Sequence record: SRR2962707_2549
Strand: one strand, 5' to 3'
Length of the DNA: 64,000 bases
The position numbers and the translations under genes were made by a program. Of this stretch, positions 1 through 48,611 are shown one piece after another (position 1 is the stretch's first letter; each line of letters starts with the position of its first letter). Under the pieces are notes generated by a model. The model saw nothing but the letters and a program-made list of their open reading frames with translations, was not told where the DNA came from and searched no databases.

Positions 1-5
1 TTAAC

Positions 6-101
6 CTAGGTCACGTCAGACGACAATGGTTTTGCCATAGCCGTAATTTTTTCGAGTTTTTCGCGCTTAGTCGCAATGGGTTTTTCGTAGGTCTTTTTCA
101 T
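6..101 (-). CDS. Putative RiPP precursor peptide 1 (31 aa, MKKTYEKPIATKREKLEKITA-MAKPLSSDVT)
   Basis: Manually translated; absent from the ORF track. ATG at 99-101, TAG at 6-8, GGAG Shine-Dalgarno at 108-111. YxxP motif and Thr at leader position -2, as in lasso-type leaders. Paralog at 258-371; RRE and B2 peptidase nearby. Confidence 0.85.
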   Translation of the reverse strand: MKKTYEKPIATKREKLEKITAMAKPLSSDVT

Positions 102-371
102 CAAAGTCTCCGCAATATGCATAAATAATATATTCTTCTTTTATGTCGGCAAAAATAGGCTTTTAAATTACTGCAGGCCGAGCAGGTATCTATTTCTCAA
201 ATAACACTTTTTCATCATGATAGCGCTTTGATTATAAAGCACTGTTCGTGACAAATGTTAACTGTTGCCAATATCTGGCTTTCTAGATGTTGGTTCTTTG
301 ATTTGCTGTGCCGTTATTTTTTCTAGCTTTTCGCGCTTAGTCGCAGCGGCTTTTCCGTATGTCTTTTTCAA
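42..371. repeat. Diverged direct repeat of the leader-coding DNA (42-101 vs 312-371)
   Basis: The 18-nt string TTTTCGCGCTTAGTCGCA is identical at 58-75 and 328-345; flanking similarity is confined to the leader codons. Confidence 0.9.
258..371 (-). CDS. Putative RiPP precursor peptide 2 (37 aa, MKKTYGKAAATKREKLEKITA-QQIKEPTSRKPDIGNS)
   Basis: Manually translated. TTG start at 369-371, TAA at 258-260, GGAGG SD at 377-381. Leader is identical to precursor 1 at 18/21 residues, with synonymous codon differences; the core is unrelated. Confidence 0.82.
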   Translation of the reverse strand: MKKTYGKAAATKREKLEKITAQQIKEPTSRKPDIGNS

Positions 372-527
372 TTGAGCCTCCATTGCATCTACATTTCTAA
401 AAAAAGCTAGATTTTCTGGGGCAAAGTGTCAATGTGATTGACGCGGGGTCACCATGCAACTGATAGTGCTGCACAATTAATTCCATTTCGATTAAATTCG
501 CACCTAACGCTTTTCAAAGAAAATTTT

Positions 528-1967
528 ATGCACATTCCGCTATTTGAAAACTTTCCCACAAGTTCGCAGCTTCACAATGTGCGAACTAATGAAAGCTATG
601 ATCATTCATCGCTTTGTGCTGCGGTTAAAGAACTTGTTAAATCACGATTTATTGCGACAATAATTCCGGGAGAAACCATCGTCATCGGCCTTTCTGATCC
701 ATGCGCTGTGCTCATAAAACTGTTCGCAAGTTGGGCAAATGGAAACAAGGTTGTTTTAGTCAATCCTGGCTTAAAGCCTATCGAGCAGGAGACCGTTGTT
801 AAACACACCGGCGCCACCCATTGGTTTGGGGATTATTCCGATGACCTTGAGATAGAGCTTTCTAAAAATCGTAAAACAACGCCCGCAGCGTGTCAGCCAA
901 CCGCCCTTAAATTGGACGATCCAGCCCTTGTTCTTATGACGTCTGGAACGACAGGAACACCGAAGGGAATTGTTCACACACTAAGGACACTAAAGACGAG
1001 ACTTTCTCTCAATCTTATTTATCTGAAATCCGAAGTCTTGGAAAATACGCTCTGTGTGCTGCCCCTATTTTTTGGCCACGGCCTTATCGGCAATTGTTTA
1101 ACGCCATTAGCAGCAGGCCAAAAAGTGTATTTGTGGCCAACACCAACGATAAATGAAATATCTAATTTAGGGTGTATTTTAGACGACTATAGAATTACAT
1201 TTATGAGTTCTGTTCCAACATTTTGGAAACTCGCGCTTAGATTTGATCCACCTTCAAAACCTTGTTTAGCGCGCGTCAGCATTGGCTCCGCACCACTTTC
1301 TGTTGCCCATTGGGCGGCGGTAAAAGACTGGACTGGATGCAACGCAATTTTTAACATGTTTGGCATGACAGAAACAGCAAACTGGATCGGTGGCGGTAAC
1401 CTTGAAAACGCTGACGGACGCGATGGCTATGTTGGTCCTATATGGGGCGGCCGGTACGCTGTGAGACTGGAAGATGGAACTATAGGCTTTTCTGGACGCG
1501 GCGAAGTGCTGGTTGATTCTCCAAGCAATATGGTTGGCTATTTGAACGCAGAAGCGCAGACCAATGATGCGATGCAGGGAGAATGGTTTAGAACGGGCGA
1601 TATTGGCGAACTAAGCGAAGCTGGCGAGCTGGTTCTGGTCGGTCGCAGCAAAACTGAGATTAACCGCGGCGGGATAAAGATTTTGGCCGAAGAAATTGAT
1701 ATGATGCTTGAACGGCATCCAGCGATTGCCGAGGCCTGCGCATTTGGTGTGCCTGACGAAGTGTCCGGTGAAGTTGTTGCGGCTGCTGTCATTTTGAAAG
1801 CCGAAATGGAGTTAAGCCATGGTGAGTTGCGCAAATGGTGCCTTACTCAAGTTAGAAATGAAGCGGTTCCCCAAAACATTTACTTTGTCGCTTCCATCCC
1901 AAAAAATGACCGAGGAAAAATCGTCAGAGCCGATGTTATGCGCGCGGTTTCGGGCCACGTGGTATGA
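528..1967 (+). CDS. Class I adenylate-forming enzyme (acyl-CoA/acyl-ACP ligase-like)
   Basis: Motifs MTSGTTGTPKG, FGMTE, FRTGD, RSK..INRGG and the terminal PKNDRGK lysine. ATG at 528 preferred over TTG at 438. Confidence 0.9.
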   Translation: MHIPLFENFPTSSQLHNVRTNESYDHSSLCAAVKELVKSRFIATIIPGETIVIGLSDPCAVLIKLFASWANGNKVVLVNPGLKPIEQETVVKHTGATHWFGDYSDDLEIELSKNRKTTPAACQPTALKLDDPALVLMTSGTTGTPKGIVHTLRTLKTRLSLNLIYLKSEVLENTLCVLPLFFGHGLIGNCLTPLAAGQKVYLWPTPTINEISNLGCILDDYRITFMSSVPTFWKLALRFDPPSKPCLARVSIGSAPLSVAHWAAVKDWTGCNAIFNMFGMTETANWIGGGNLENADGRDGYVGPIWGGRYAVRLEDGTIGFSGRGEVLVDSPSNMVGYLNAEAQTNDAMQGEWFRTGDIGELSEAGELVLVGRSKTEINRGGIKILAEEIDMMLERHPAIAEACAFGVPDEVSGEVVAAAVILKAEMELSHGELRKWCLTQVRNEAVPQNIYFVASIPKNDRGKIVRADVMRAVSGHVV

Positions 1968-2557
1968 TAAAAGCAATGTCAAAAAGTGATTTGTCTAATC
2001 CCATAATTACGCAGCGCTTTGAACTGGTTCCGATTGGGTGTTGGGAATTAGCAAAGCGGATCCAAAGTTCGCAAGGCGATCCCGAGCTTCTAGCATCACT
2101 GTATCATCGCACGCGCACGCAAAGCTTTTTCGCAATTCTGCTAAAGACGAAACGCAGCAAAATTCCCAAGCGGCTCTACCATAAAATTATCGTCCGCTCG
2201 ACTGGTAAGGTCATTGGTTTTCACACCCTGCAATTTAAGAAATACAAAAGTGCCAACCTCGCTGTTGTCATTCATGATCGATCTTGGTGGGGCAAAGGCG
2301 CTGTTGTTGAGATTAGAAAAATGCTCATTCCGGCTTATCAAGAAGCGATGGGCGTGACCCAGTTTTGCGCGGATGTGAACAGTCGAAATTTTGCGTCTAT
2401 CCTCAACTATAAAAAGCTTGGGTTTGAAAATGTCGGTGTAAGGTACTCTTGCGTCTACGACGAGGTCCGCCAACTGCCTGCCGATTATTACAGTTTTTCT
2501 TTGCGCGGCAAAAAGCTTGAAGAACAGATAGAAGCTTGGAAAAATCATGGCGCATGA
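1964..2557 (+). CDS. RimJ/RimL-type GNAT acyltransferase
   Basis: WWGKG acyl-CoA-binding loop and N..S...YKKLGF motif; ATGA-coupled to the ligase. Confidence 0.8.
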   Translation: MIKAMSKSDLSNPIITQRFELVPIGCWELAKRIQSSQGDPELLASLYHRTRTQSFFAILLKTKRSKIPKRLYHKIIVRSTGKVIGFHTLQFKKYKSANLAVVIHDRSWWGKGAVVEIRKMLIPAYQEAMGVTQFCADVNSRNFASILNYKKLGFENVGVRYSCVYDEVRQLPADYYSFSLRGKKLEEQIEAWKNHGA

Positions 2558-2780
2558 ACAGGCAATATCTTTGGTTTGCAAATTAACCGGCTACGATCGT
2601 TCAGAAGTTTCCGATCATGATGATGCCCAAAGCCTCGAACTCTGGGACAGCATTGCGCATGTCAATATAATCATGACATTAGAGGAGCTAATCAATCGTC
2701 CACTATCAACGGCCGAGATTATCAATATGAGCTCAATAGAAGGAATTCAAAATCTTCTAGGCAGCGTTCAACGAGCTTAG
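2547..2780 (+). CDS. Stand-alone acyl/peptidyl carrier protein
   Basis: 77 aa, acidic, with a WDSIAHVNII phosphopantetheine-Ser motif; overlaps the GNAT stop. Confidence 0.85.
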   Translation: MAHEQAISLVCKLTGYDRSEVSDHDDAQSLELWDSIAHVNIIMTLEELINRPLSTAEIINMSSIEGIQNLLGSVQRA

Positions 2781-2789
2781 GTTTATAGA

Positions 2790-3779
2790 TTGCAACGATT
2801 GAGTAAAAAGCAGCGCCTTGTCCTGTGCAGCCTGGCCGATCCAGCCAGAGCCGTAGGCGATATTGACCTGCTATCAGTATTTTCTTTGGACGACCTTATT
2901 TACGTAGCGGAAATGCACGGCATTTCTTCAATCATCCACCGAAAACTAAAAGAGTATAATGCACAAAACGCCGCTGGACTTGAAAAGGAAATAAGCGCGG
3001 GAAATGAAACTTTGCGGTTTCAAACAGCGGCAATGCTTGATTTGGATTTTCACGGCAAGAAAATCGGCCAAGCGCTTTCAAATGCAAATATAGAACACCG
3101 CTATGTAAAAGGTCTGACCTTCGCGAACGATCTTTATGATAACCCTAATGACCGCCCTTACACGGATATCGATATTGTTGTGCCCCTTGAGCAACTTGCG
3201 CAAGCAACCAAGATTGCAATTGACCTCAATTATACCCAATCAATAAAAGCGGAACTGGATGGTTCAGAGCGCAATCAAGAAATTAAACTGCTTTGGCCAG
3301 GTGCCCGCCACATACTGATTGAACTGCATGGAAATCTCGTTCACATGCAAAAATTGCGGCAAGTTAAAAAGATTGGCTTCCCTGAACTGTCTATGGCCTA
3401 TGATCGGCAAACGCCTTTTGTCGGGCATTTTGTCATCGCTGTGGCGCACTCCTCTCTGGGCCACAAGTTCCACAATCTTAAACTGATGGTAGACTGTCTG
3501 CAGGCAATGAGACGTCTAAACGAAGAAGATTTGCCCTATCTCGCTCAGATGGTTAGCCAATTTAATCTGCGCTATGAAGTGGCGACATGCCTTGAGCTCT
3601 GCCAATCAATTTTTGGCGGTAAGGAAATTTCAGCAAAAGCAGCTTTGATGAAACGCGAATTGTCGCTGCCTTTTGCATCGCCCTTTGTGAGAGCCGTTGA
3701 TGTGCTTCAGGCGCCGCTTGAAAATAACTCGGTATCACGGCTACGAAGATATTTTTTCCGCTTATCTCAAATGGTATGA
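2790..3779 (+). CDS. Nucleotidyltransferase family protein (type found in lasso-peptide clusters)
   Basis: KG...LY....RPYTDIDIVV (DxD) and IELH motifs; TTG start. Confidence 0.85.
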   Translation: MQRLSKKQRLVLCSLADPARAVGDIDLLSVFSLDDLIYVAEMHGISSIIHRKLKEYNAQNAAGLEKEISAGNETLRFQTAAMLDLDFHGKKIGQALSNANIEHRYVKGLTFANDLYDNPNDRPYTDIDIVVPLEQLAQATKIAIDLNYTQSIKAELDGSERNQEIKLLWPGARHILIELHGNLVHMQKLRQVKKIGFPELSMAYDRQTPFVGHFVIAVAHSSLGHKFHNLKLMVDCLQAMRRLNEEDLPYLAQMVSQFNLRYEVATCLELCQSIFGGKEISAKAALMKRELSLPFASPFVRAVDVLQAPLENNSVSRLRRYFFRLSQMV

Positions 3780-4768
3780 CCAAGCGCGGCTGAAATCATC
3801 TTGGCCATCTCAATGGGTGAGCCGTTTAGATTGACACGATAGCAAGGGGTGCAGCGGATCAACGCGCTATACGTATCAAGCTTGTTTTCATCATAAGGCC
3901 TCAGCGCCGAGCCGATGGTCGACATATTATCTTCCAGCAGATCATGCAGCCCATCAAACGCGCTAACTTTAACAACACTGCACGGCTTTGATAGATCGCG
4001 GGAAAGAGAAACCACCGCACTGATGGGAAGGGTTTTTTCGTCGATAATGATTTTCGCTTCAATCAACGAAGCACGGTTTAAAAACTGTTCGCCATTCAGA
4101 TCAAAGTCCTTTGATCCAAAATGATCACCTAGAAAGGGAAGCGCCTCAACCGTATTACGATGCACTTTCGGTGCGCGCGGCACTCCCCACGCGGTCGCAA
4201 CTGCAGCGTTTTGCCCACAGCGGATCACGGTCGCATCATCGCTGATAATGGCGTACCCGACTGCACCTAAAGCAAACGATGTCGTGGTTTTGCCGGTGCC
4301 GCTTTCAGCATGCAGCAAAATCGCAGAAGATTTGTCTGGCGTTGCCAAGCATGCGGCATGAACAAAGCTTTGTTCCGCTGACGTGATCGTATGTTCCAGC
4401 GCAATGATGGATAATTCGTCAAGGCCCTTTAAATGCGCTGTGGTTTTTGCCGACGAAATTTTTGCCGATCCATCCTTAAAAAGTTCGACTTTTAGATCAT
4501 CTCCAATTGTCACGACTTGCACACGGTCGTCGACTTGGTAGAACTGCAAGGCCTGACCGCCGACGGATATCTTTTCGTCAAGCAATTTACCTACCGGCGC
4601 ATTAAAATTTTGAAATTCGCAAATTTCAATCTTGAAAACCGCGCCCGAACTTGGCGCTGTTTCAACGCGCCGTGGACCGAGCAGCCAATCAAACATTTTG
4701 AGCGCAGGTTCAGGGCCACAAACACATAGGTTGGCGCCGTCAATGTCAAAATATAGTGAGGACATCAT
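3767..4768 (-). CDS. HPr-kinase-like serine kinase (lasso-cluster type)
   Basis: HAA, Walker A ESGTGKTT and ISDD motifs; coupled to the B2 gene. Confidence 0.85.
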   Translation of the reverse strand: MMSSLYFDIDGANLCVCGPEPALKMFDWLLGPRRVETAPSSGAVFKIEICEFQNFNAPVGKLLDEKISVGGQALQFYQVDDRVQVVTIGDDLKVELFKDGSAKISSAKTTAHLKGLDELSIIALEHTITSAEQSFVHAACLATPDKSSAILLHAESGTGKTTTSFALGAVGYAIISDDATVIRCGQNAAVATAWGVPRAPKVHRNTVEALPFLGDHFGSKDFDLNGEQFLNRASLIEAKIIIDEKTLPISAVVSLSRDLSKPCSVVKVSAFDGLHDLLEDNMSTIGSALRPYDENKLDTYSALIRCTPCYRVNLNGSPIEMAKMISAALGHTI

Positions 4769-5193
4769 GGTTTTGTCTCCTCCGGCACCGAATACACAAC
4801 GACCATATTTTCCAATATGTCGTTGATTAAAGCGCGGCCGTTAAGTTCAACCCAGCAATGTGCGCTTAGCTTCTGGGAATTGACTGAGCTGCGATCAATG
4901 CCGAATTTTAAAATTGGATTGTAGCCCGCCTTGCGCAAAAATCGCATGCCCAAAAGGCCTTGTCGCAGGCACTGCCGATCACGCATAAACCATGGGCGCT
5001 TGGTGGCGCGCATCACCTGCTTGGCAATTCGTGTTGGTTCCACGCCACAAAAATCTTTATCCGCATCAACTTCTATATATTTCAGCGTAGCAGCTAAATC
5101 TCGATTACGCATCATGAGGGGCAGCAATCGCGCCGAAAGCTTAATCTCAAACTTAAGGCGAAAACGCGTCCTGAGTTTTAACGTAACCACCAA
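4765..5193 (-). CDS. Lasso-type B2 leader peptidase (transglutaminase-like Cys protease)
   Basis: 142 aa; CLRQ Cys, AHCWVE His and a downstream Asp; adjacent to the RRE gene. Confidence 0.9.
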   Translation of the reverse strand: MVVTLKLRTRFRLKFEIKLSARLLPLMMRNRDLAATLKYIEVDADKDFCGVEPTRIAKQVMRATKRPWFMRDRQCLRQGLLGMRFLRKAGYNPILKFGIDRSSVNSQKLSAHCWVELNGRALINDILENMVVVYSVPEETKP

Positions 5194-5472
5194 TTAGTCT
5201 TTCGATGGAATGAGAACAGCTTCGTCGATCAAAAAATCCACCAGCTCGTTGAGGTCTTTCTCAAGCACCGCTTTTTCCACATCGAACTCTTCCAAAATAT
5301 TTGCAACAGCCGCGTCAAACGACAAGCCTTTTTGAACGTTCTTGATGAACGCTGATCCGCTTTGATTGGTTGAATAAAGTTGGCCGCTTTCGGCCATAAG
5401 AATAATGCCTTCATCACCCAAATCACGGAACGATGCAGATGGGTTGAGCGATAGGTTTTCTTTTGAAGACAT
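5194..5472 (-). CDS. PqqD-family RiPP recognition element (B1)
   Basis: 92 aa from ATG 5472; LYSTNQSG...I and EEFDVEKAVLEKDLNELVDFLIDEAVL match the PqqD/RRE pattern. Confidence 0.88.
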   Translation of the reverse strand: MSSKENLSLNPSASFRDLGDEGIILMAESGQLYSTNQSGSAFIKNVQKGLSFDAAVANILEEFDVEKAVLEKDLNELVDFLIDEAVLIPSKD

Positions 5473-5783
5473 AATTGAAGAACATCCTGTTAATGCGCCA
5501 AGATGTATTTGAAAATGACCGAAGGTCAACCCACCGCGCAATGCTTCGCATGCCGAAAGTGTATACATCGCGCTATGTTACCTTGACGGTTCATGATGAG
5601 TATTTGGATTTTGTCTGTTCTCAGCCTGTGTTTTTTCTAGCACACCTTGGCTAGTCGCGTAAGCTTACCTATGGTAATCAACGAGTATGATAGATCGCGC
5701 TTGTGCGGAATTTGCCACCTGATATGATTATTTCTACGGGGACTTTTCTAGCAAGCAAAATTTAAGAACTTAGGAAATTAAAC

Positions 5784-6782
5784 ATGAAGTGTTTCTGCAC
5801 AAATGTATTGAGAATGTGCGCAATCTCGCTTGTTTTTGGCCTCGCATTTACAGTCCCATCCATATCGGCAGAAACGATTATATTAAAAGTTGGGTACTCC
5901 GCTGGCGGTGGCTATGATCAAGGCGCGCGCCTTATCGCATCGCAACTGGGGAGATACTTGCCCGGAAATCCTTCCGTGGTGGTTCAAAATGTTCCCGGCG
6001 CTGGCAGCCTAAAACTGACCAAATTAATGATCAATTCTGAACCCAAAGACGGAACGGTTTTAGCGATGGTGAATGCGTCCGTCGCCACGGCAACAGTCAC
6101 GACACCGGACGTCGCGAATTTTGATGCCAGCAATTTTAATTGGGTCGGCAGTATAACGGATGCGTCCGCAATTTGTTATGTTGATAAAAGAATTGCGAAC
6201 ACTGATTTAGATGGACTTTTGAACGGTGGTCTTATTCTAGGTGCGAGTGGGAAAACCAGCACGACCTATATTTTCGCGGCACTTGTAAAGAACCTCTTTG
6301 GTGCGAATTTTAAAATTGTCACTGGTTTTGAAGGCATTAACGAAATAAACGCAGCAATCCTAAGAGGCGAAATACAAGGTGCATGCGGCCCGTCTTCCAC
6401 TTCCTTTGAGAGCGGAGCGGCCCAAGACAGCGTTAATGTTGTTGGTTATTGGGCATTGAACCCTGACCCGAAGTTTCCCAATATCACTAACTTCTATGAC
6501 CAAATAGAAGATCAAAAGGACAAGGCTGCTGCAAAGCTCTATGTCGGTGTGCGAACAATTAATCAGCCAATCTTTTTACCACCAGGCACACCACCCGAAA
6601 AAGTGGAGGAGATGCGTAAAGCCTACTCAACAATGGTTGCAGACCCAGCATTTAAGGAAGCTGCGATTAAAAACAATTTTGAGATTGGCCCACACTCCGG
6701 CCAAGAGGTGACTGATCTCATGAAGGAATTGATTTCAGTTAGTTCAGAAATCATAGAGCGTGCTGGAGAAATAAGCCGCTGA
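5784..6782 (+). CDS. Tripartite tricarboxylate transporter substrate-binding protein (TctC/Bug family)
   Basis: Signal peptide, GYSAGGGYD..AR and NVPGAGS motifs. Confidence 0.85.
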   Translation: MKCFCTNVLRMCAISLVFGLAFTVPSISAETIILKVGYSAGGGYDQGARLIASQLGRYLPGNPSVVVQNVPGAGSLKLTKLMINSEPKDGTVLAMVNASVATATVTTPDVANFDASNFNWVGSITDASAICYVDKRIANTDLDGLLNGGLILGASGKTSTTYIFAALVKNLFGANFKIVTGFEGINEINAAILRGEIQGACGPSSTSFESGAAQDSVNVVGYWALNPDPKFPNITNFYDQIEDQKDKAAAKLYVGVRTINQPIFLPPGTPPEKVEEMRKAYSTMVADPAFKEAAIKNNFEIGPHSGQEVTDLMKELISVSSEIIERAGEISR

Positions 6783-6819
6783 ATTGTTGATTATATTCTA
6801 GGGCGAAACTCTATTCAGC

Positions 6820-8763
6820 ATGGACATAATTTTAACTGCCTTTGAAAGTGTGATGCAAGCCGATGTTCTTTTGATGCTGTTTTGCGGCGTTACCTTAGGA
6901 CTATTCATCGGTGTGATACCAGGCCTTGGCGGCTTGTTCGGCATGGCTTTGCTGGTTCCGCTTACTTATGACATGGAGCCGATTGCGGCCTTTGCATTAT
7001 TACTCGGCATGGGTTCAGTCATAACAACATCTGACACTATTCCAGCCGTGCTTATTGGCGTGCCAGGCAGCGTTGGCGCCATTGCAACGGTTGAGGACGG
7101 ATTCCCGCTTGCAAAGCAAAATCAAGCACCGCGCGCTTTAGGCGCTGCCTATAGCGCATCGCTTATTGGCGGAATATTTGGCGCTTTGGTGCTCGCAGTG
7201 TCGATACCGATCATGCAGCCATTAGTGCTATTGTTGAAAACCCCAGATTTTCTAGCAATTTCGCTGTCCGGTCTCTTTCTCGTGTCAATCTTAAGCGGAC
7301 AACATCTCTTCAAGGGTTTGTCTGCTGCGACATTGGGCGTTTTGCTTTCACTGATCGGCATAGATGGACAAACCGCCACCGAGCGCTTCACCTTTGGCGA
7401 ACTCTATTTTTGGGACGGGCTACCGCTTGCTGTTGTATTCCTCGGCATTTTTGGTTTGCCAGCGTTAATGGATTTGATGGCGCAAAAAGACACGGTAAAT
7501 TCCTCAGCCAAAATGTCCACATCAGCTGTGCTAGAAGGTATTCGCGATACGCTGCGTGAATGGCGGCTTGTGCTATCTTGTAGCTCTGTAGGCTCGGTGC
7601 TCGGCGCAATTCCCGGCATTGGTTTGCCGGTCATTGAATGGGTTGCTTATGGTATTGGAAAGCGGCACCGCAAAGATGGACCGGAATTCGGTCAAGGTAA
7701 TATTCGCGGTGTGATCGCTCCGGAAAGCGCCAACAATGCCAAAGAGGGCGGCGCTCTTATTCCGACAATTGCAATTGGTCTTCCTGGTTCGGCGACGATG
7801 AGCATATTGCTTGGCGCCTTTATAATGCACGGGCTGGTGCCCGGTCCCAGTATGCTCACCGAAAACCTATCCATTACCTATTCGATGATCTTTTTCGTTG
7901 CTGCCGCGAACATACTTGGCGCGGTCATGTGTCTTGCGATGACAAATCAGTTGTCGAAGATAACAACAGTTCCATCTTCTATTATTGTTCCTATCGCCTT
8001 GGTCTTTATCACTCTTGGCGCATTTCAAAATGATGCAAGCTGGATTGATGGATTGGTTCTCGTCATTACCGGTCTGTTGGGCTTCTACATGAAGGAGAAT
8101 AATTGGCCACGGGCAGCGCTCGCTCTAGGTTTTGTTCTCGGCCCGACCATCGAACGCTATTTCTTCCTGTCTTATCAGATCGTAGGGACTGACGTATTGT
8201 TTCGCCCGACAATTATGTTCATCCTTTTTCTTGGCTGTGTGTTTTGCCTTAGGGCGCTGGCCAAATGGGCAAGAACAAGAACAGAAAACAAAACAAACAA
8301 CGCCTATGGCGTAAATGATTTTGTTGCTGCGATATTTTTATCGCTGGGTTCCATTTGGTGTCTTTGGCAAGTCTGGAATATGCCGCTTGGTGCCGCGCTT
8401 TTTCCCAAAATCGGGTCAGCACTACTTCTTGTGTTCACTCTTTTGATCGCTCTTAAATCCGCAAGTTCAGTATCGCGGATTAAGGGACCTATAGATAATC
8501 TGGCCGGTAACTTCCGGAACGCCCTTATTTTGCGTCAAAAGGAATTTCTGGTTCCTCTGGCGCCGATGATTTTTATTGGGTTGATCTATTTGATCGGCGT
8601 TGCTCCGGCGACCATTGCCTTTGTGGGGCTGATGATTGTTCAGGCAAATCGTGCCATGTGGCGACGCGCCGTTTGGTTTGCACTCGGCACAGCGGTTGTC
8701 GCATTTGTTGTTTTCAATGTTCTAATTGCAACGCCGTGGCCCAAGCCACTCATTGGATTGTAA
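6820..8763 (+). CDS. TTT large permease TctA with fused C-terminal TctB-like domain
   Basis: G.IPGLGG and APESANNAKEGGALIP motifs. 647 aa, with ~150 extra hydrophobic residues ending in P.P.G, as TctB does. Confidence 0.82.
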   Translation: MDIILTAFESVMQADVLLMLFCGVTLGLFIGVIPGLGGLFGMALLVPLTYDMEPIAAFALLLGMGSVITTSDTIPAVLIGVPGSVGAIATVEDGFPLAKQNQAPRALGAAYSASLIGGIFGALVLAVSIPIMQPLVLLLKTPDFLAISLSGLFLVSILSGQHLFKGLSAATLGVLLSLIGIDGQTATERFTFGELYFWDGLPLAVVFLGIFGLPALMDLMAQKDTVNSSAKMSTSAVLEGIRDTLREWRLVLSCSSVGSVLGAIPGIGLPVIEWVAYGIGKRHRKDGPEFGQGNIRGVIAPESANNAKEGGALIPTIAIGLPGSATMSILLGAFIMHGLVPGPSMLTENLSITYSMIFFVAAANILGAVMCLAMTNQLSKITTVPSSIIVPIALVFITLGAFQNDASWIDGLVLVITGLLGFYMKENNWPRAALALGFVLGPTIERYFFLSYQIVGTDVLFRPTIMFILFLGCVFCLRALAKWARTRTENKTNNAYGVNDFVAAIFLSLGSIWCLWQVWNMPLGAALFPKIGSALLLVFTLLIALKSASSVSRIKGPIDNLAGNFRNALILRQKEFLVPLAPMIFIGLIYLIGVAPATIAFVGLMIVQANRAMWRRAVWFALGTAVVAFVVFNVLIATPWPKPLIGL

Positions 8764-8794
8764 CGATAGTCCTGGGCGGGAATAGGAAGGTAAT

Positions 8795-10279
8795 CTACAA
8801 TAGAGATTGCAGTTTTTTTCGATCCAGCTTGCCATTCAAATTGTACGGCAAGCGCTCGACGACTTTGATAATTCTAGGGCGTCGGTCATGGGCGAGCATT
8901 TTCATACATAGCTCATGTAACGTGCGTTCATCACCATTTTTAGACACGATGACAGTTGCTATTTCCTGACCAAAGTCATCGTCATCAATACCGAATACTG
9001 CAACGTCGTCTATCATTGGGTGAGCGATTAGTATATTCTCTAACTCCTGCGGTGCGACATTGACGCCGCCGCGAACAATCATATCCCCTTCGCGTCCTGT
9101 GATTGTTAGAAAGCCGTCTTCGTCGATAAATCCGAAATCCCCCGGCGCTCCCCAATCATCACCCATACGTTCAGCATTACTAGCGGAATCGGGGTGCAAA
9201 ATCACTTTATCGGCCCGATATGGCGTGTAGACTTTGATGAGGCCGATTTGCGTTGGTCCAAGTGGCAACATAGACAACGGATCAACGATTTCAATTTTAA
9301 CGCCGCCAATAGCGGTGCCGGAAGTTGCAGGTTTCCTTAGCACATCTTCGCCCGATAAGAGACTGGTCGGCCCCGTAAGCGTCGACGAATACCCCATACA
9401 ATAGCCATTGCTTAAATATCGATAGGCATCTTGCTTATCTTCAATTGTCGCAGGTCCACCAATGCTGCGCAAAACCGTGAGTTCAGGAAAGAAAGGCTTA
9501 TCGCGCGGCCCAATTTCTTTGACCAGTTTTCTAACTATAGGGGGTGGGAAAGCGCAGGCCGATGGCCTCACTGACAACATGCTTTCGATTAGCTCACTCG
9601 TGCTAAATAAAGGTTTGCCAAAAATTACCAAATTTTCAAAAGCGAGGTAATTGAAAACCATTTGCCGCGTCGCAGAAAATGACATCGGCATAGGTGTAAA
9701 AAAGCGCCCCGTCGCAGAGGTTGTTTTGCTTCGTCGTGTTTTTATGCGCAATGCAATTTGGCGGTGTGATTGCGTATATGCTTTGGGAAACCCAGTTGTG
9801 CCTGATGATAGCGAAATAAAGGCTGGATACTGATCCAGTTCATCAGGTTTAGGGAACTCTCTTGAACCATCATCGACCCAATTTTTATCGCCGAGCCAAA
9901 TCAAACTTGGATAATTATCCACGCCGGCGGGGTGCCGGTTCTCGATAACTATTTTTGCCCCTGTTAACACACTAACAGCACTGCGCTGTGATGCAGGCGT
10001 TCTAAAATCAAGGATCACTGGCGTCGCACGTAAGTACCAACTGCCGATGACACAGCTTAGTACATCAACATGGTCGACGAGGCAGATAATCACGCAATCA
10101 CCGTTTTGAATACCTGATTTGGACATCATGCTTGCTGCGGATTGGGCGCGTTTTAGCAATTCGCTGCCGGTCATTTTTACTCCGTCAGCATCAATCACAA
10201 CCACTTCATCATGCCGCTTTTTCAAGCGTTCATATACAATAATTCCAAGCTGCGTTTGTGTTGTCGTATTTTCGCTCAT
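8795..10279 (-). CDS. Second class I adenylate-forming enzyme
   Basis: LSSGTTGFPK, PGD, GREGDMIVRGG and LPYNLNGKLDRK motifs; the YGxTE motif is degenerate (YSSTL). Confidence 0.88.
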   Translation of the reverse strand: MSENTTTQTQLGIIVYERLKKRHDEVVVIDADGVKMTGSELLKRAQSAASMMSKSGIQNGDCVIICLVDHVDVLSCVIGSWYLRATPVILDFRTPASQRSAVSVLTGAKIVIENRHPAGVDNYPSLIWLGDKNWVDDGSREFPKPDELDQYPAFISLSSGTTGFPKAYTQSHRQIALRIKTRRSKTTSATGRFFTPMPMSFSATRQMVFNYLAFENLVIFGKPLFSTSELIESMLSVRPSACAFPPPIVRKLVKEIGPRDKPFFPELTVLRSIGGPATIEDKQDAYRYLSNGYCMGYSSTLTGPTSLLSGEDVLRKPATSGTAIGGVKIEIVDPLSMLPLGPTQIGLIKVYTPYRADKVILHPDSASNAERMGDDWGAPGDFGFIDEDGFLTITGREGDMIVRGGVNVAPQELENILIAHPMIDDVAVFGIDDDDFGQEIATVIVSKNGDERTLHELCMKMLAHDRRPRIIKVVERLPYNLNGKLDRKKLQSLL

Positions 10280-10286
10280 GCAGATT

Positions 10287-11288
10287 TTAAACCGTCAAAA
10301 ATTGCGCAATTTCATCATCGATTAATTGCCGGTTTGCGTGCTGCCAGCCAAGATGTTTCCCCTCCACAACAACGGAGCGAACCGTTGAATCTTTAGGCAA
10401 ATTTTTAGTGTAATCCACCACAGATTGGCGCATTTCAGAACTGGCCAAAAACAAAATGTCGCAAGGATAAGGTTTTAATTCAAATGCGAGAAAAGCTCGC
10501 GCTAGCGCCTTTTTGAATTGCTCTCGGCGGATTTTTTTCCCAACGGACGTCTTATCAAGTGCCAAAAATTCCGCCGCTTTCAGCAGTTTTCTGTATTTGT
10601 TGTATTTTTTGTTGAACAGATCAGTGCGCGCCTTTGCGTCATCTGGATCTGAAAATGGGCTAACCCAACCCTTGCTCAGTAGTGGCGGATCAATAAGGAT
10701 AAGCCGAGGTTTTCTGCCCGTTCGTTCAAAATATTGTCGGCCCATTTCAAAAGCGATGAGCCCGCCAATGCAAATACCGCCAAAAACTTCAATGGAGGCA
10801 CCGTCTTCTGATGACACGGCATTGCGGTAGTTCTCAATAATCTTGTTCGGATCGACGAGAGGTATCTCTCCTTTATTTATGCCCCAACCGCGAATTGCCA
10901 ATATATTGGCTTTTGATCTGAATTTGGGTCCAAGCCGACTGACGAATAATGGGCTGCCTGACATGCCATGCACCATGGTCGCCGAAATGTTATGGGGATT
11001 GGAATCCAATTGCGTGACTATCTTCTTTAGCTTAGGCCCGTCTTGAAGTTTTGTGATCAACTGAGCTAATTCACTCGCTGAAGATGCACTGAGCAAAACA
11101 GAAGTCTGAAGTGGAACCTTGAATTCACTTTGCAGCGCCAGCGCAAGATTTTCCGCCATTAATGAATCGCCGCCGAGATCAAAAAAATTATCGTGCTCAC
11201 TGACAGAAGTCAGTCTCAGCTCTCTTTCAAAAATCCTGCAAATTTGTTCTTCAAGCGCGGAAGCCATAGTTTGTCCATTTGGGATCAT
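10287..11288 (-). CDS. Carrier protein (T)-thioesterase didomain
   Basis: N-terminal FFDLGGDSL motif; alpha/beta hydrolase with VHG, GICIGG, LIDPP and GKH. Confidence 0.82.
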   Translation of the reverse strand: MIPNGQTMASALEEQICRIFERELRLTSVSEHDNFFDLGGDSLMAENLALALQSEFKVPLQTSVLLSASSASELAQLITKLQDGPKLKKIVTQLDSNPHNISATMVHGMSGSPLFVSRLGPKFRSKANILAIRGWGINKGEIPLVDPNKIIENYRNAVSSEDGASIEVFGGICIGGLIAFEMGRQYFERTGRKPRLILIDPPLLSKGWVSPFSDPDDAKARTDLFNKKYNKYRKLLKAAEFLALDKTSVGKKIRREQFKKALARAFLAFELKPYPCDILFLASSEMRQSVVDYTKNLPKDSTVRSVVVEGKHLGWQHANRQLIDDEIAQFLTV

Positions 11289-11508
11289 TTACGTATTGAG
11301 TAGTTTATTCGTTAAATCGTAACATCAAGCAATAAAAATTGCACAATTTGAATGCAAATTCCCAAATTCATTGAACCTAGTCTGATTGAAGCAATAAGCT
11401 TCTGTTTATGGGCAATATTTTGCCACGCGGCAGCGCTAGTTAGAACTTCATTCTAAGACTGCGCTGCAAAAGCCCCCCATTATGCAAAAAATTCCAAAAG
11501 GGGCTGTT

Positions 11509-12519
11509 ATGTTCAATTTTAAGTCTACACTAAACACAGTTGCGGCCATTGCCGCCTCGATATTTTTAACATTGCCGGCAAATGCGCAGGATGAAATCGA
11601 GATCGGTTACATGCCAATCTTGCCCGTGTCTCAGCTTTTTGTTGGGCTGGAAGAGGGCTACGTCGAAGATCTGGGCGTCAAAATAAAACTCACCGAATTC
11701 CAAAATGGCCCTGCGATGGTGCAGGCTCTTTTGGCAGGCCAGCTCGACGTTGCTAATGTTGGTATTGGTCCAGCCATGGTGGCGCGGGCGCGCGGCGCGG
11801 ATATTAAAGTGGTAGCTTCCAGCATTGTTGAGCAGATCAGCATGTTAGCACTGGGCGATTTGGCGCCATATTTTGAAAATGATGATGCTGCAACCGCATT
11901 CTCTCGCTTTTCTGCTGACAAAGGCCGCAAGGCTGTTATTTCGACATTCCCTGTCGGGTCTGTGCCAGAAACCGTGTTGCAATATTGGTTGCGCAATGTT
12001 TTGGAAATCGATCCATCAGAAGTTGAGATTATTTATCAGGGCGCAGCGCAAGTACAGCAAGCGCTGCTCACGGGTGCTGTTGATGGTGCCGCGATTTTGG
12101 AACCAGCGGTCACAATCGTCAAAAGCAAGAGCGACAAAGTGCGCGTTGTCGCGAAGGGCGCAGAAATGTTCCCACGCCAGCCCGGCGCCATTCTTGCTGT
12201 GCGTGAAGGGTTGATTGAAAACCATCCGGAAATTGTTGCCAAACTTGTGGAATCACACGAAAAAGCTACACAAATCCTGAACAATGACCCTGCAAAAGCA
12301 GCGATTGCTGTGCAGAAATTCGTCGGTGGTGGACGCTTACCTGTTGCGCTCATCGAAAAGGCAATTGAAGGCTCAAAAGGTTCATTCGTTGCAGACCCGA
12401 ATTTCATTTTAGAAGGCACTCAAACCATGCATGACTTCCAAGCTGAAATCGGCACTTTGAAGCAGAAAGTGGACATCAACACATTGTTTGATACCTCGTT
12501 TTATGATGCCTTGAAATAA
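11509..12519 (+). CDS. Sulfonate/nitrate-type ABC transporter substrate-binding protein
   Basis: Signal peptide, IGYMP and FQNGPAMVQALLAGQLD (SsuA/NrtA-like). Confidence 0.85.
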   Translation: MFNFKSTLNTVAAIAASIFLTLPANAQDEIEIGYMPILPVSQLFVGLEEGYVEDLGVKIKLTEFQNGPAMVQALLAGQLDVANVGIGPAMVARARGADIKVVASSIVEQISMLALGDLAPYFENDDAATAFSRFSADKGRKAVISTFPVGSVPETVLQYWLRNVLEIDPSEVEIIYQGAAQVQQALLTGAVDGAAILEPAVTIVKSKSDKVRVVAKGAEMFPRQPGAILAVREGLIENHPEIVAKLVESHEKATQILNNDPAKAAIAVQKFVGGGRLPVALIEKAIEGSKGSFVADPNFILEGTQTMHDFQAEIGTLKQKVDINTLFDTSFYDALK

Positions 12520-17158: not shown

Positions 17159-18694
17159 CTAGTCTGGATCCATCATTTCAGTATCTTTCGCCGCAAGTCG
17201 GGCTGGCCGCACGAAACGTCCCACAAGGATAGGTGCCACGAAGCCGATGATTGCGAAGCACCAAATGCCGATTGATAGAGGGCTATCGATGAGCGCCCAC
17301 CAATCGCCATCAGAAATCGTCAGTTCACGGCGCAAATTAGTCTCCATCAATTTGCCGAGCAATACGCCAAGGATAATAGGAACCAATGGCACCTCAGCCT
17401 TGCGGAACAACCAGCCCAAAATACCAAAGGCAATCATGATCAAAAGATCGAAGGTTGAGCCTGAAATACCGTAAATGCCGACGAACGAGATCATCGCCAC
17501 CGCAGGCATCAAATAGCGTGATGGAACTTGAAGAACGCGAACGAACAGTTTTACCAACGGCAAGTTTAGCGCCAGCAGCATCACGTTCGCGATGAAAAGC
17601 GCTGCGATTAGCCCCCAAACCACATCAGGGTTTTTCTGGAACAGCAGTGGGCCGGGGGTAATGTTGAGGGCAAGAAGTAGCGAAAGTAGCACTGCCGTCG
17701 TGCCCGACCCTGGTACGCCTAGTGCAAGCATTGGGACGAGGGCACCGCCAGCGGCTGCATTGTTGCCAGCTTCCGGCGCTGCAACGCCGCGCGGATCACC
17801 CTTGCCAAATGTGTCGCCTTTATTGGAAATTTTCTTTTCCACCGTATAGGCAAGGAACGATCCGAGCGAAGCGCCAGCGCCGGGCAAAATGCCTGCCAAA
17901 AAGCCAATCACAGTGCTTCGCGCCATTGCCGGAGTAACAGATGCTAACGTTTTGACTGAAGGCATTGTGCGTCCTAAAGGCACCTTTCGTGCATCAACGC
18001 CGCCACCGGAACGTTGTTCGAGGAAGATGAACACTTCAGAAAGGGCAAATAGGCCAACAATGACAACAAGGAAGTCGATGCCATCATAAAAATGAATATT
18101 GTTGAAGGAGAAACGCGCAACACCGGTCTGCTGATCAAGGCCGATCATCGCGATCAAGAGACCAATGCCCATGGCAAAAGCAGATTTCATCTGATTTTTG
18201 GCTGCAACGCCGCCGATGGTTGCAAAAGCAAGAGCAAATAGGGCGAAATATTCGGCTGGGCCAAACAGTAGGGCCACTTTAACCAACTGTGGGGCGAGGA
18301 ACACAAGACCCCAAGTGGCGAAGAATGCGCCCACGAAAGAAGCTATACCAGAGATCGCCAAAGCCTCTCCAGCACGGCCTGCTTTTGCCATGGGATAACC
18401 ATCAAGGCAGGTCATCATGGCAGGTTCGTCACCTGGAATGTTAATCAGGATCGAACTAATGCGGCCACCATACATAGCGCCATAATAAACAGAGGTTAAA
18501 AGAATTAGAGCAGGCGTTGCTGGCAAACCAAGAGAAAAAACAAGCGGTATGAGAATGGCAACACCGTTAGAAGGCCCAAGTCCGGGAAGTGCCCCGATTA
18601 TAGTGCCCAGAAAGCAGCCGATGGCTGCCAGCATTAGGTTCTGCAGTGTAAAGGCGATCCAGAAACCATCGCCGAGCGAGGAAAGAGCGTCCAT
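17159..18694 (-). CDS. tctA: TTT large permease
   Basis: GALPGLG, YYGAMYGG and APEAGNNA motifs. Confidence 0.92.
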   Translation of the reverse strand: MDALSSLGDGFWIAFTLQNLMLAAIGCFLGTIIGALPGLGPSNGVAILIPLVFSLGLPATPALILLTSVYYGAMYGGRISSILINIPGDEPAMMTCLDGYPMAKAGRAGEALAISGIASFVGAFFATWGLVFLAPQLVKVALLFGPAEYFALFALAFATIGGVAAKNQMKSAFAMGIGLLIAMIGLDQQTGVARFSFNNIHFYDGIDFLVVIVGLFALSEVFIFLEQRSGGGVDARKVPLGRTMPSVKTLASVTPAMARSTVIGFLAGILPGAGASLGSFLAYTVEKKISNKGDTFGKGDPRGVAAPEAGNNAAAGGALVPMLALGVPGSGTTAVLLSLLLALNITPGPLLFQKNPDVVWGLIAALFIANVMLLALNLPLVKLFVRVLQVPSRYLMPAVAMISFVGIYGISGSTFDLLIMIAFGILGWLFRKAEVPLVPIILGVLLGKLMETNLRRELTISDGDWWALIDSPLSIGIWCFAIIGFVAPILVGRFVRPARLAAKDTEMMDPD

Positions 18695-46952: not shown

Positions 46953-48611
46953 CTATTCGGCGGAATTAGTTTCCACGATGGCTTCGACAGGCACCGTCAG
47001 CGACCAGATCAATCCAGTTTCTTCGTAGTTAAGTTCACTTAATCCACCAAGCGCGGATGCAGCGAACCGCTCTAAAATCTGTGTTCCAAAACCACTGTCG
47101 CTTGGCATTTCTACCTTTTGTCCACTTAGCTCCTGCCAAACGAGTTTAAGTTTGGGCCCAGAATCTGAAGCTGTAATTTCCCAAGAAACATGAACACGCC
47201 CAGCCGAAGTTTTTAAGCTGCCATACTTTACGGCGTTGGTTGCGAGTTCATGAATAGCCATGCCAAGATGCTGAACAGCTTCGGCTCTCAGTTTAAGTTC
47301 GGGGCCTGATAAAATTACGTTCTGGCCTATGGTTCCATAATTGAAGAGTTGTTTGGCCAATAGGTCATTCAGTAGCACGCCGCCCCATTTCTGGCTGGTC
47401 AGCAAGTCGATCGAAAAACTCAATCCCATGATCCGGTCGGTTAGCAATTTTGTCATTGCTTCAGTTGAGGAGGCATGGCGAGATGTCTGCCTTACCATTG
47501 AGATCACGACAGCGATGAGGTTCTTTGTTCGGTGCGCCAACTCATGGCTTACCATTGTGATCGTAGTTTCATGTTGACTTCTATCAAATGAAGCGTCTGA
47601 AAGCGCCTTTGCAACAACGTCAATTTCTGAAATACGCGAATTGATGGGCGACACAATTTCACCAGCCCCAAGCTGCCTTGCCATGCGTGCAATTGCTCGG
47701 ATTGTTTTACCCAAATAGTCAGAGAAAATATAAAGAAATGCGATTGAAACTATCGCAAAAAACAAGCTGCCGAAAATGACAATGCGCCACGTTTCGTAAA
47801 CGGATTGCTGGGCAGTTGATACTGGCCCATTGATAAAAACCTTCCAACCAGAGTTACCGACCACAGTTGAGGCAGAGATTATACCGTCTTGCTTGTTTAG
47901 GTTCTTTGCGGGATTGGCATTTAAAAATCGGTTCAGTTCCATGACGTCGAGATTTTGAACCGGATCTCCAGATACGTGTCTCGACCGATCTGAAGACGCA
48001 ACAACGCGGCCGGTACTATCAACCACCAAGGCGAGCCATTCTTCGGGCAGAGAAATATTGTCGAAAGTGCTTCCGATATCTTCAGCATTTTTAGTCGTTA
48101 TGGCTATACGAGCAGGCGAAGCGTAGTTCTGGGGCAGCAGCTTAACGACATTAAATACCCACTCATCGCTTGTTTTGCCTTTAAACACGCCAGAAACATG
48201 AACGGATTTCGACGTCAGATCGGCATTTAATCCACTTTGGTCTGATGTTCTGCCCAGCACTGTTCCATAGGGTACGCGCGTATTGAGCAATTGCTGGCCG
48301 TCTTGTGTCGTCAGAATAACAAAGCTTCCGCTGCCCTCCAGCGCAAACTGCGTTTTCCTATGAAAGCCTTGAAGATCGCCTTCGGCTAACTCTTGAGAGG
48401 ACGAAACCAAGTTTAATGTAATCGACATATTTTCAATAATTGATTCAACACTTTGCGCAACAATATCTGCAGTGCGCAACGTGCGCTGCTCTAGCGCTGC
48501 ATCCTCTGTTTTCTTCAACTGCCCGACTAGGAATAGGAGGAAGATAAGAAGTGGAACAAAGGTCGCGATAAGAAGCGCTGCAAGCCATAACGAAATTGAA
48601 AATCGTCTCAT
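46953..48611 (-). CDS. Membrane HWE histidine kinase with periplasmic Cache-like domain
   Basis: Two TM segments; ELAHRTKN, HELATNAVKYG, WQE and GFG. Confidence 0.9.
   Translation of the reverse strand: MRRFSISLWLAALLIATFVPLLIFLLFLVGQLKKTEDAALEQRTLRTADIVAQSVESIIENMSITLNLVSSSQELAEGDLQGFHRKTQFALEGSGSFVILTTQDGQQLLNTRVPYGTVLGRTSDQSGLNADLTSKSVHVSGVFKGKTSDEWVFNVVKLLPQNYASPARIAITTKNAEDIGSTFDNISLPEEWLALVVDSTGRVVASSDRSRHVSGDPVQNLDVMELNRFLNANPAKNLNKQDGIISASTVVGNSGWKVFINGPVSTAQQSVYETWRIVIFGSLFFAIVSIAFLYIFSDYLGKTIRAIARMARQLGAGEIVSPINSRISEIDVVAKALSDASFDRSQHETTITMVSHELAHRTKNLIAVVISMVRQTSRHASSTEAMTKLLTDRIMGLSFSIDLLTSQKWGGVLLNDLLAKQLFNYGTIGQNVILSGPELKLRAEAVQHLGMAIHELATNAVKYGSLKTSAGRVHVSWEITASDSGPKLKLVWQELSGQKVEMPSDSGFGTQILERFAASALGGLSELNYEETGLIWSLTVPVEAIVETNSAE

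Follow-up and report, generated by a model that had tools for sequence, protein, structure and literature searches.

The 64,000-nucleotide stretch of DNA from sequence record SRR2962707_2549, which will be referred to as the window, carries at approximately positions 6-5568 a gene cluster for ribosomally synthesized and posttranslationally modified peptides (RiPPs). The existence of this cluster, which consists of lasso peptide-derived machinery minus the ring-closing enzyme, was confirmed. Its genes encode two small precursor peptides (preA2 and preA1), a PqqD-type RiPP recognition element (RRE), a lasso-type B2 leader peptidase, an HprK-like peptide kinase, an NTP_transf_5 nucleotidyltransferase, and a cassette of an adenylate-forming acyl ligase (lig1), a GNAT acyltransferase and an acyl carrier protein (ACP) (Table 1). 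The cluster probably directs the synthesis of a linear N-acyl phosphopeptide, and short linear peptides that are both phosphorylated and acylated are the products most likely to be expected from its sequence. What was directly observed comprises the genes themselves with their catalytic motifs, the co-conservation of these genes, the lack of a cyclase and the conservation of Ser or Thr in the core peptides. A preliminary description of this DNA had proposed an undescribed hybrid RiPP system in which lasso-type leader processing without a cyclase is joined to carrier-protein acylation chemistry. Every gene named there was recovered at its position by open reading frame (ORF) listing and by Pfam and NCBIfam scans, and the interpretation as a whole is partly supported by the data presented below.

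Related loci were collected with a profile of kinase homologues, yielding 160 loci divided equally between species genomes and metagenomes (80 each; loci and genomes are designated by L and G numbers, respectively). A gene was scored as present when tblastn with the window protein gave a match with E ≤ 1e-5 and at least 50% query coverage, not more than 9 kb from the kinase gene; the 79 loci in which the kinase gene is flanked by 6 kb or more in both directions are called well flanked. The RRE-B2-kinase-nucleotidyltransferase cassette is conserved across the 160 loci, and in the well-flanked set the RRE was detected in 76, B2 in 78 and NTP_transf_5 in 74 loci. The acyl genes occur in a smaller part of this set (lig1 in 27, GNAT in 27 and always together with lig1, ACP in 22); a formyltransferase-like gene was scored in 15 and a Mur-ligase-like gene in 3 of the 79 loci. 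The named genome loci belong mostly to Rhizobiales (Mesorhizobium, Hoeflea, Phreatobacter, Nitratireductor and Chelativorans) and in some cases to Rhodobacteraceae.

The window contains no recognizable lasso cyclase, in agreement with the preliminary description. An Asn_synthase domain was absent from all 12 window ORFs of at least 380 amino acids (aa), and a home-made Asn-synthase/lasso-cyclase hidden Markov model (HMM) found nothing in the six frames of the window. This HMM was built from six Asn-synthase-family proteins encoded in the related genomes (L161-L166), one of which is a true lasso cyclase (787.7 bits on NF033535). Six-frame translation of the window and of all 160 loci provided the search space of 20,061 segments of at least 60 aa. 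Only two of the 160 loci were matched, L059 and L071. The respective proteins possess intact glutamine-amidotransferase domains and reach 385 and 353 bits on TIGR01536 (cut-off 267), i.e., above the asparagine-synthase threshold, whereas their 178 and 197 bits on the lasso-cyclase model NF033535 lie below the cut-off of 525; they were rejected as lasso cyclases and represent glutamine-dependent AsnB enzymes. The count of lasso cyclases is consequently 0 in 160 related loci, including 74 with 10 kb on either side of the kinase gene. A search with PF00733 covered five genomes bearing related loci. In the genome of L009 no match was present nearby, the nearest one being 219 kb away, and on the L020 chromosome the nearest match lies 18 kb past the end of the locus, approximately 28 kb from the kinase gene. 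For L001, L012 and L024 the cyclase HMM gave no Asn-synthase match within the loci, and in G001, a metagenome-assembled genome that bears the closest locus and may be incomplete, PF00733 yielded only PP-loop matches of 30 and 24 bits. The match at a distance of approximately 28 kb is a true lasso cyclase. Mesorhizobium sp. WSM4083 (G004) carries a complete canonical lasso cluster (L167, 8232-14234) approximately 28 kb from the kinase gene of a cyclase-free cassette. This lasso cluster consists of a PqqD B1, a transglutaminase B2, a cyclase with 787.7 bits on NF033535 and an ATP-binding cassette (ABC) exporter. Service of this cyclase to the cassette in trans was considered and rejected because the cyclase has its own B1, B2 and exporter. 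The survey supports the view that this family has conserved an RRE- and B2-based leader processing in which a cyclase is lacking, and that most of its cores would be unable to form a lasso ring. Lasso-type leader processing without a cyclase, the first half of the earlier proposal, has thereby been strengthened.

The precursors preA2 and preA1, two paralogous small ORFs at the left edge of the window, had already been noticed as precursor-like genes. Across all 64 kb, a leader HMM built from the related loci gave no matches other than these two (preA2, 30.6 bits; preA1, 13.5 bits), so the two small ORFs exceed what chance would give. The probable start of preA2 is the second ATG at 101, which results in MKKTYEKPIATKREKLEKITA followed by the core MAKPLSSDVT; its leader shows the lasso-type features KTYEKP...ITA, namely YxxP and a Thr at position -2. 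The leader of preA1 ends in KKTYGKAAATKREKLEKITA, with Ala replacing the Pro of YxxP, and is followed by the core QQIKEPTSRKPDIGNS. This Y..A variant is also present in 16 of 122 family precursors. A weak leader match to NF033528 (lasso_cyano; 13 bits, E 0.077) was obtained for preA2, and one of the Mesorhizobium precursors exceeded the cut-off of NF033521 (lasso_leader_L3; 21.4 versus 19 bits). The expectation that precursors of relatives are labelled "putative RiPP precursor" proved correct, as NCBI uses this label as well as "lasso RiPP family leader peptide-containing protein" for the Mesorhizobium precursors.

The leader HMM recovered 122 precursors from 60 sources, corresponding to 111 unique cores. 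The family leader consensus is [M]K-K-x-Y-x-K-P/A-x-x-x-K-R-E-K-L-x-x-V/I-T-A, and the leader C-terminus is TA in 84 and AA in 22 of the 122 precursors. Cores are 5-24 aa long (median 11), and up to 10 tandem precursor copies are present per locus, in L072 and L076. In these two arrays (L072, 10684-12556; L076, 8853-15762) the leaders are near-identical; the cores are variable in L072 and almost fixed in L076 (GANFSGKK...). With regard to ring formation, 62 of the 111 cores lack any Asp or Glu, and the lasso rule (G, A, S or C at position 1 together with D or E at positions 7-9) is satisfied by only 8. A Ser or Thr is found somewhere in all 111 cores and at positions 3-8 in 108 of them, with a peak at positions 4-5; Ser itself occupies positions 3-8 in 96, and a C-terminal Ser was detected in only 7. 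The closest relatives of the window share a K-P-[VIL]-S motif in their cores (IKKPVSGVSAG in L001, VAKPVSGVIN in L003 and IKPVSGAALG in L004), which is also carried by the preA2 core (MAKPLSS...).

These data bear on the alternative that an ordinary lasso cluster has been cut by the window edge, with the cyclase and perhaps an exporter located just left of position 1. The precursors lie at the edge (6-383) with their left flank outside the window, the preA2 core has an Asp at position 8, and lasso clusters combining kinase and nucleotidyltransferase with a cyclase are known from bsf and paeninodin, but a lasso cyclase is encoded in none of the 160 loci, the genome of the closest relative has no substantial Asn-synthase match, and both window cores fail the lasso rule, as preA2 begins with Met and preA1 with Gln and the latter has no acidic residue at positions 7-9. 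With the rule fitting so few family cores, we regard a truncated lasso cluster as extremely unlikely.

The probable start of the RRE is at 5472, resulting in 92 aa, and matches below threshold to lasso PqqD chaperone models were obtained. Structure prediction of a complex between RRE and preA2 gave a score of 0.63 compared to 0.01 for the best of three controls; 51 of 78 solved complexes attain the same mark, as do 2 of 108 mismatched pairs. The model runs concur in at least 96% of the contacts (partner pLDDT 60), the interface is formed by precursor residues 9-23, and the leader segment KKTYEKPIATKREKL is placed on the RRE. Since similar RRE-leader complexes have already been solved, passing this mark may reflect likeness to them and not binding, and we read the model in the former sense. 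All 138 sequences of the B2 peptidase that were compared retain Cys75 and His112.

The kinase homologues share H137, the P-loop S156-G157-T158-G159-K160-T161 and D177-D178 as invariant residues; the same residue classes (His, P-loop and Asp-Asp) are required in the lasso kinase BsfK (PMC10368454). The predicted structure (pLDDT 87.5) matched phosphoenolpyruvate carboxykinase (E 1.5e-7) and HprK/P (1kkl, E 4.9e-7; 1jb1, TMt 0.60) in Foldseek, while comparison of the kinase profile with PDB sequences aligned HprK/P over the P-loop only. A collection of 5.8 billion proteins contained 10 kinase homologues with a best identity of 57%; the closest of these (55-57%) were not recovered as loci in the metagenome scan. 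The nucleotidyltransferase is encoded by the fourth and last gene of the translationally coupled lig1-GNAT-ACP operon and overlaps the convergent kinase gene by 13 nt. Among 25 sequences of the enzyme neither G108 nor D126xD128 varies. Its model (pLDDT 89.6) gave weak PDB matches only, all with the pol-beta nucleotidyltransferase fold (MenT1, E 3.3e-3; LnuA; ANT(2''); FKRP); Foldseek returned nothing at E ≤ 0.001 for this model, and no PDB match was obtained by sequence.

The second half of the earlier proposal, co-occurrence of ligase, GNAT and ACP with the leader-processing genes, was borne out across genomes. In the well-flanked set lig1 and GNAT are paired in all 27 positive loci and neither is found alone; over all 160 loci, incomplete ones included, both are present in 40 of the 43 with either. 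The order lig1-GNAT-ACP is constant, the ACP always following the GNAT within the cassette, and the cassette itself occupies at least three positions relative to the core genes: convergent on the kinase gene and together with NTP_transf_5 as in the window, on the same strand downstream of the kinase gene, or divergent and upstream of the RRE gene. In a reciprocal test on 301 sampled genomes of the order, the window GNAT found a match in 4, and all four matches adjoin genes for kinase, RRE and nucleotidyltransferase, with B2 present in three (none in G347, the genome of L059); the kinase profile matched 13 of the same 301 genomes. Co-conservation of the lig1-GNAT-ACP cassette with the RRE, B2, kinase and nucleotidyltransferase genes is thus supported. 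On the protein level, lig1 probably starts with the ATG at 528, oxalyl-CoA synthetase, FadD13 and MenE are its closest relatives of known structure, and its orthologues (40-59% identity) adjoin the GNAT gene in related loci. The GNAT gene overlaps lig1 by 4 nt; W108, W109 and G110 as well as R141 and N142 are conserved among 42 GNAT homologues, and only weak PDB matches were obtained by sequence (E 0.021 or worse). The Asp-Ser site of the ACP (W33-D34-S35) is kept in at least 90% of 25 homologues. Dedicated polyketide or fatty acid synthase genes (KS, AT or KR) for building an acyl chain were not found in 1-11288 by ORF listing and Pfam. A FabH-like gene is located near L009 and is not conserved across loci.

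The cores of GNAT-bearing loci bear on what the cassette acylates. Of these 64 cores, 23 lack Lys, so that the N-terminus freed by B2 would be the only amine available. It is conceivable that the core cassette works as proposed and that ligase, ACP and GNAT acylate a Lys or Ser side chain or the sugar or phosphate decoration, or that the GNAT is a self-protection acetyltransferase of the MccE/RimL kind. Lys is present in the other 41 cores, some of which are Lys-rich (GANFSGKKGK..., L076), GNATs usually use acyl-CoA, which fits the resemblance of lig1 to acyl-CoA synthetases, and the acceptors of Acetyltransf_3 enzymes are diverse. Nevertheless, we consider these possibilities unlikely in view of the Lys-free cores and of the constant ligase-ACP-GNAT cassette, which is more in keeping with an acyl relay in biosynthesis than with an immunity function. 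A precedent for N-terminal acylation is provided by goadvionin, in which an acyl group carried by an ACP is reportedly moved by a GNAT to the N-terminus of the RiPP (PMC8784127).

A linear peptide with a phosphorylated or further decorated Ser and an N-acyl group is the best reading of the cluster, and we infer the chemical steps, their order, the acyl group and the acylation site from homology and conservation. The PqqD-type RRE would bind the K-x-Y-x-K-P/A...KREKL part of the leader of both precursors. Guided by the RRE, the HprK-like kinase would phosphorylate the conserved internal Ser, the Ser of K-P-x-S, at core positions 5-8 in the subclade of the window, its equivalents BsfK and LppK acting on Ser3. 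NTP_transf_5 may then add a glycosyl or nucleotidyl group to the phosphate in the manner of PsmN in pseudomycoidin, and B2 would cleave after ...I-T-A. In the final steps lig1 is predicted to adenylate a carboxylic acid and to load it onto the 77-aa carrier protein, from which the RimJ/L-type GNAT would pass the acyl group to the freed N-terminal amine. The putative end product is a linear N-acyl phosphopeptide of 10 or 16 residues.

Several findings weigh against this pathway. The likeness of lig1 is to short-acid acyl-CoA synthetases and not to fatty acyl-AMP ligases; such an enzyme may supply acyl-CoA to the GNAT, which would leave the role of the ACP open, and the ACP itself scores below the Pfam cut-off. 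LppN, the nucleotidyltransferase of the related LPP clusters, showed no detectable activity in the published heterologous host (PMC13381572), so the nucleotidyltransferase step is thinly supported by experiment. The third residue of the B2 triad is ambiguous, N118 or D125, and two GNAT-bearing loci, L059 and L121, have no B2 match between RRE and kinase genes; either their peptidase is encoded elsewhere or the copies are degenerate. Concerning the precursors, preA1 lacks the Pro of YxxP and has a low leader HMM score, and the Ser residues of the window cores are at positions 6-8 compared to the family peak at 4-5. The family lacks a conserved exporter gene. Further cluster genes may be located beyond the left edge of the window, and no RNA run is listed for this stretch; 12 runs of DNA or unknown type share at most 0.42 of the sampled words.

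The exporter result also touches on the role of the peptides. An ABC exporter is absent from 1-11288, and L059 and L076 are the only loci in which an ABC gene was detected next to the cluster. The four-gene core of Mesorhizobium is set among housekeeping genes (acetyl-CoA synthetase, DUF2259 and Dak1), and the biological role of LPPs and paeninodins is described as unknown, both being encoded near capsule loci (PMC13381572). The short peptides might accordingly be intracellular or envelope-associated, for example signalling molecules, cofactor-like compounds or surface decorations, and not a secreted product. We rate this as somewhat unlikely, although no evidence against it was obtained here; it concerns the role and not the mechanism and is compatible with a linear N-acyl phosphopeptide as product.

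The boundary of the cluster had to be corrected. The preliminary description had counted a second ligase (lig2), a carrier protein-thioesterase didomain (T-TE) and a tripartite tricarboxylate transporter (TTT; TctC and fused TctA/TctB) as members of the system, which would amount to a wider hybrid pathway extending to 11288. These genes adjoin the RRE gene in the window and have carrier-protein chemistry, but T-TE, TctC and TctA were found in none of the 79 well-flanked loci and in none of all 160, and a lig2-like gene is present in three loci only (L005, L007 and L083; 25-27% identity). Among 101 relatives of G001, full-length T-TE was detected in one, G045, and a second genome gave partial matches of 24-28% identity; in G001 itself the T-TE query found no match. 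In G045 the four genes are grouped (L176, 5386-10921; lig2 43%, TctA 48%, TctC 36% and T-TE 41% identity), RRE, B2, kinase, nucleotidyltransferase and GNAT are without match in the surrounding 20 kb, and the sole kinase-like match is weak (30.8 bits) and on a different contig. This grouping apart from RiPP genes argues for TctC-TctA/B-lig2-T-TE as a module of its own and renders a wider pathway very unlikely. The cluster therefore extends from about 6 to 5568, with a left end that may lie beyond the window, and the genes at 5784-11288 are excluded as a separate unit. The thioesterase part of T-TE contains a G-x-C-x-G motif (GGICIGG; GGICMGG in G045), Ser being the usual nucleophile at this site.

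Table 1. Features of the cluster and of the adjoining right-hand module in the window.
Feature	Position	Strand	Evidence
preA2 precursor, 38-aa ORF	6-122	-	Direct reading, leader HMM
preA1 precursor, 41 aa	258-383	-	Direct reading, leader HMM
lig1, AMP-binding adenylate-forming acyl ligase	438-1967	+	PF00501 134.8 bits, PF13193 59.7 bits
GNAT acyltransferase, RimJ/RimL-type Acetyltransf_3	1964-2557	+	PF13302 36.5 bits
Stand-alone 77-aa ACP	2547-2780	+	PP-binding 18 bits (cut-off 20.8)
NTP_transf_5 nucleotidyltransferase	2790-3779	+	PF14907 74.2 bits
HprK-like peptide kinase	3767-4768	-	Weak TIGR04352/04355, P-loop only; fold by model
Lasso-type B2 leader peptidase, transglutaminase-like Cys protease	4765-5193	-	NF033537 54.9 bits (cut-off 33), PF13471 43.6 bits
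PqqD-type RRE (B1)	5194-5568	-	PF05402 40.8 bits
TctC	5784-6782	+	
Fused TctA/TctB	6820-8763	+	
lig2, second AMP-binding ligase	8795-10279	-	
T-TE, PP-binding and thioesterase didomain	10287-11288	-	Thioesterase 26.3 bits (cut-off 26.4)

Gene calls are based on the ORF listing together with Pfam and NCBIfam scans, and the precursors were read directly. Three transcription units are present in 6-5568: the precursor unit, which is divergent from the lig1-GNAT-ACP-NTP_transf_5 operon, and the RRE-B2-kinase operon, which converges on the latter. A promoter and terminator scan of 1-6000 gave counts at the level of shuffled sequence (9 versus 8.9 and 6 versus 8.1), and positions 1-12000 had no match in a plasmid collection. 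A formyltransferase-like gene may lie in the left flank outside the window, as such a gene directly follows the precursor in L001; Formyl_trans_N genes of approximately 330 aa accompany the cassette in L001 (13690-14664), L014 (8036-9049) and L045 (10658-11644). In L059 (5918-9131) and L071 (5882-9079) the RRE gene has two divergent neighbours, coding for a Mur-ligase-like protein and for the glutamine-dependent asparagine synthase, and Mur-like matches were also observed in L003 and L004; this pair may represent a further tailoring module. Elsewhere in the window a second TctA transporter gene (17159-18694) and an HWE-type histidine kinase gene (46953-48611) were noted, the latter being consistent with an alphaproteobacterial origin. 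The G+C content of the window is approximately 42-54%, low compared to that of the named relatives' loci (61-64% in L009, L012 and L020; 53% in L001).

If the proposed pathway is correct, it would be the first case of carrier-protein-dependent acylation in a lasso-derived pathway and of a B2 peptidase that is productive without a cyclase partner, and lasso B1/B2 would represent a general leader-removal module for which a cyclase is not needed. The three-gene cassette of ligase, ACP and GNAT might then N-acylate short ribosomal peptides, with possible use in engineering lipopeptide-like or capped peptides. Cyclase-free linear phosphopeptides would reach beyond Bacillota to Rhizobiales, including culturable strains of Mesorhizobium, Hoeflea and Nitratireductor; Hoeflea poritis E7-10 (L012) and Nitratireductor sp. 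XY-223 (L024) bear the form with the acyl cassette, Mesorhizobium that of the four-gene core. Given the multicopy arrays and the shortness of the cores, the chemistry would be readily testable by mass spectrometry. We tentatively suggest, with somewhat less confidence than for the cluster of the window itself, that these loci might constitute a new class of RiPPs, present in Alphaproteobacteria and possibly beyond them, in which B2 was kept and the cyclase lost, an acyl group is delivered to the N-terminus by a dedicated, ligase-loaded carrier protein and an internal Ser is decorated through a phosphate, giving N-acyl phospho(glyco)peptides of 5-24 aa that are often encoded in multiple copies.

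Among known systems the closest comparison is with the LPPs (lppA-K-B-S-D-N) of Bacillota, cyclase-free RiPPs with an RRE, an HprK-like kinase and an NTP transferase (Popov et al., Nat Commun 2026, PMC13381572). In that report their core set comprises an SpI-like peptidase, a discrete RRE, LppK, LppN, an exporter and a YxxP leader, LppK places up to four phosphates on core Ser3 in a reaction accelerated by the RRE, and the authors state that LPPs are restricted to Bacillota. The window cluster shares with them the discrete RRE, the HprK-like kinase, the NTP transferase, the YxxP-type leader and the lack of a macrolactam cyclase; a linear product phosphorylated at an internal Ser close to where the core begins has been shown for LPPs and would be expected here. 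Differences concern the peptidase, which is SpI/SipW-like (LppS) in LPPs and a lasso B2 Cys protease in the window, where no signal peptidase was found by Pfam and NCBIfam among the ORFs of at least 75 aa taken as genes in 1-11288, all of which were assigned otherwise. LPPs furthermore possess an MsbA-like exporter, which the window cluster lacks, a 45-aa core and a longer leader motif compared to the 5-24 aa cores of the window family, and occur in Bacillota whereas the latter is found mostly in Rhizobiales. A ligase-ACP-GNAT cassette does not figure in LPP clusters as far as the main text goes, in which the words "acyl", "acetyltransferase" and Proteobacteria do not appear (PMC13381572). On this Rhizobiales family a literature search surfaced only the LPP paper and lasso reviews, and the LPP supplements (Data 1-2) could list non-Bacillota relatives.

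A second comparison is offered by bsf (bsfA, K, B1, B2, N, C and D), the phosphorylated lasso cluster of Bradymonas sediminis. BsfK targets Ser3, an internal residue of the core, can also act on Thr and works faster in the presence of the RRE (PMC10368454). The gene set A, K, B1, B2 and N in a Gram-negative organism and the kinase His, P-loop and Asp-Asp residues are common to both. In contrast to the window cluster, bsf encodes a lasso cyclase and an ABC exporter and has a predicted lasso product; its leader has Ile at position -2, compared to the terminal TA prevailing in the window family, and no acyl cassette is among its described genes. Paeninodin and pseudomycoidin clusters likewise pair an HPr-kinase homologue with a nucleotidyltransferase for tailoring, PsmN adding one or more hexoses to the phosphate in pseudomycoidin according to a review (PMC8498205). 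Their kinases are described there as targeting a C-terminal Ser, a residue rare at this position in the window family, and the clusters as Firmicutes clusters with a cyclase. The window cluster resembles the goadvionin type in gene content, as an acyl-activating enzyme, a carrier protein and a GNAT are encoded alongside its RiPP genes; goadvionin reportedly combines an acyl chain from a dedicated polyketide synthase (PKS) with an avionin ring, whereas the window has a single ligase and ACP and no PKS or lanthionine enzymes.

Taken together, the window cluster resembles an LPP cluster, or bsf minus cyclase and exporter, while falling outside LPPs by its peptidase and missing exporter and outside lasso clusters by its missing cyclase, and its acyl cassette was seen in neither LPP nor bsf. 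The designation of the system as undescribed can be retained in part only, as cyclase-free LPPs (PMC13381572) and phosphorylation of Ser3 in bsf (PMC10368454) have been published. Cyclase-free RiPPs with K and N enzymes were thus already known from LPPs, and what the cluster analyzed here adds to them is B2 as the peptidase, the distribution in Rhizobiales and the acyl cassette.

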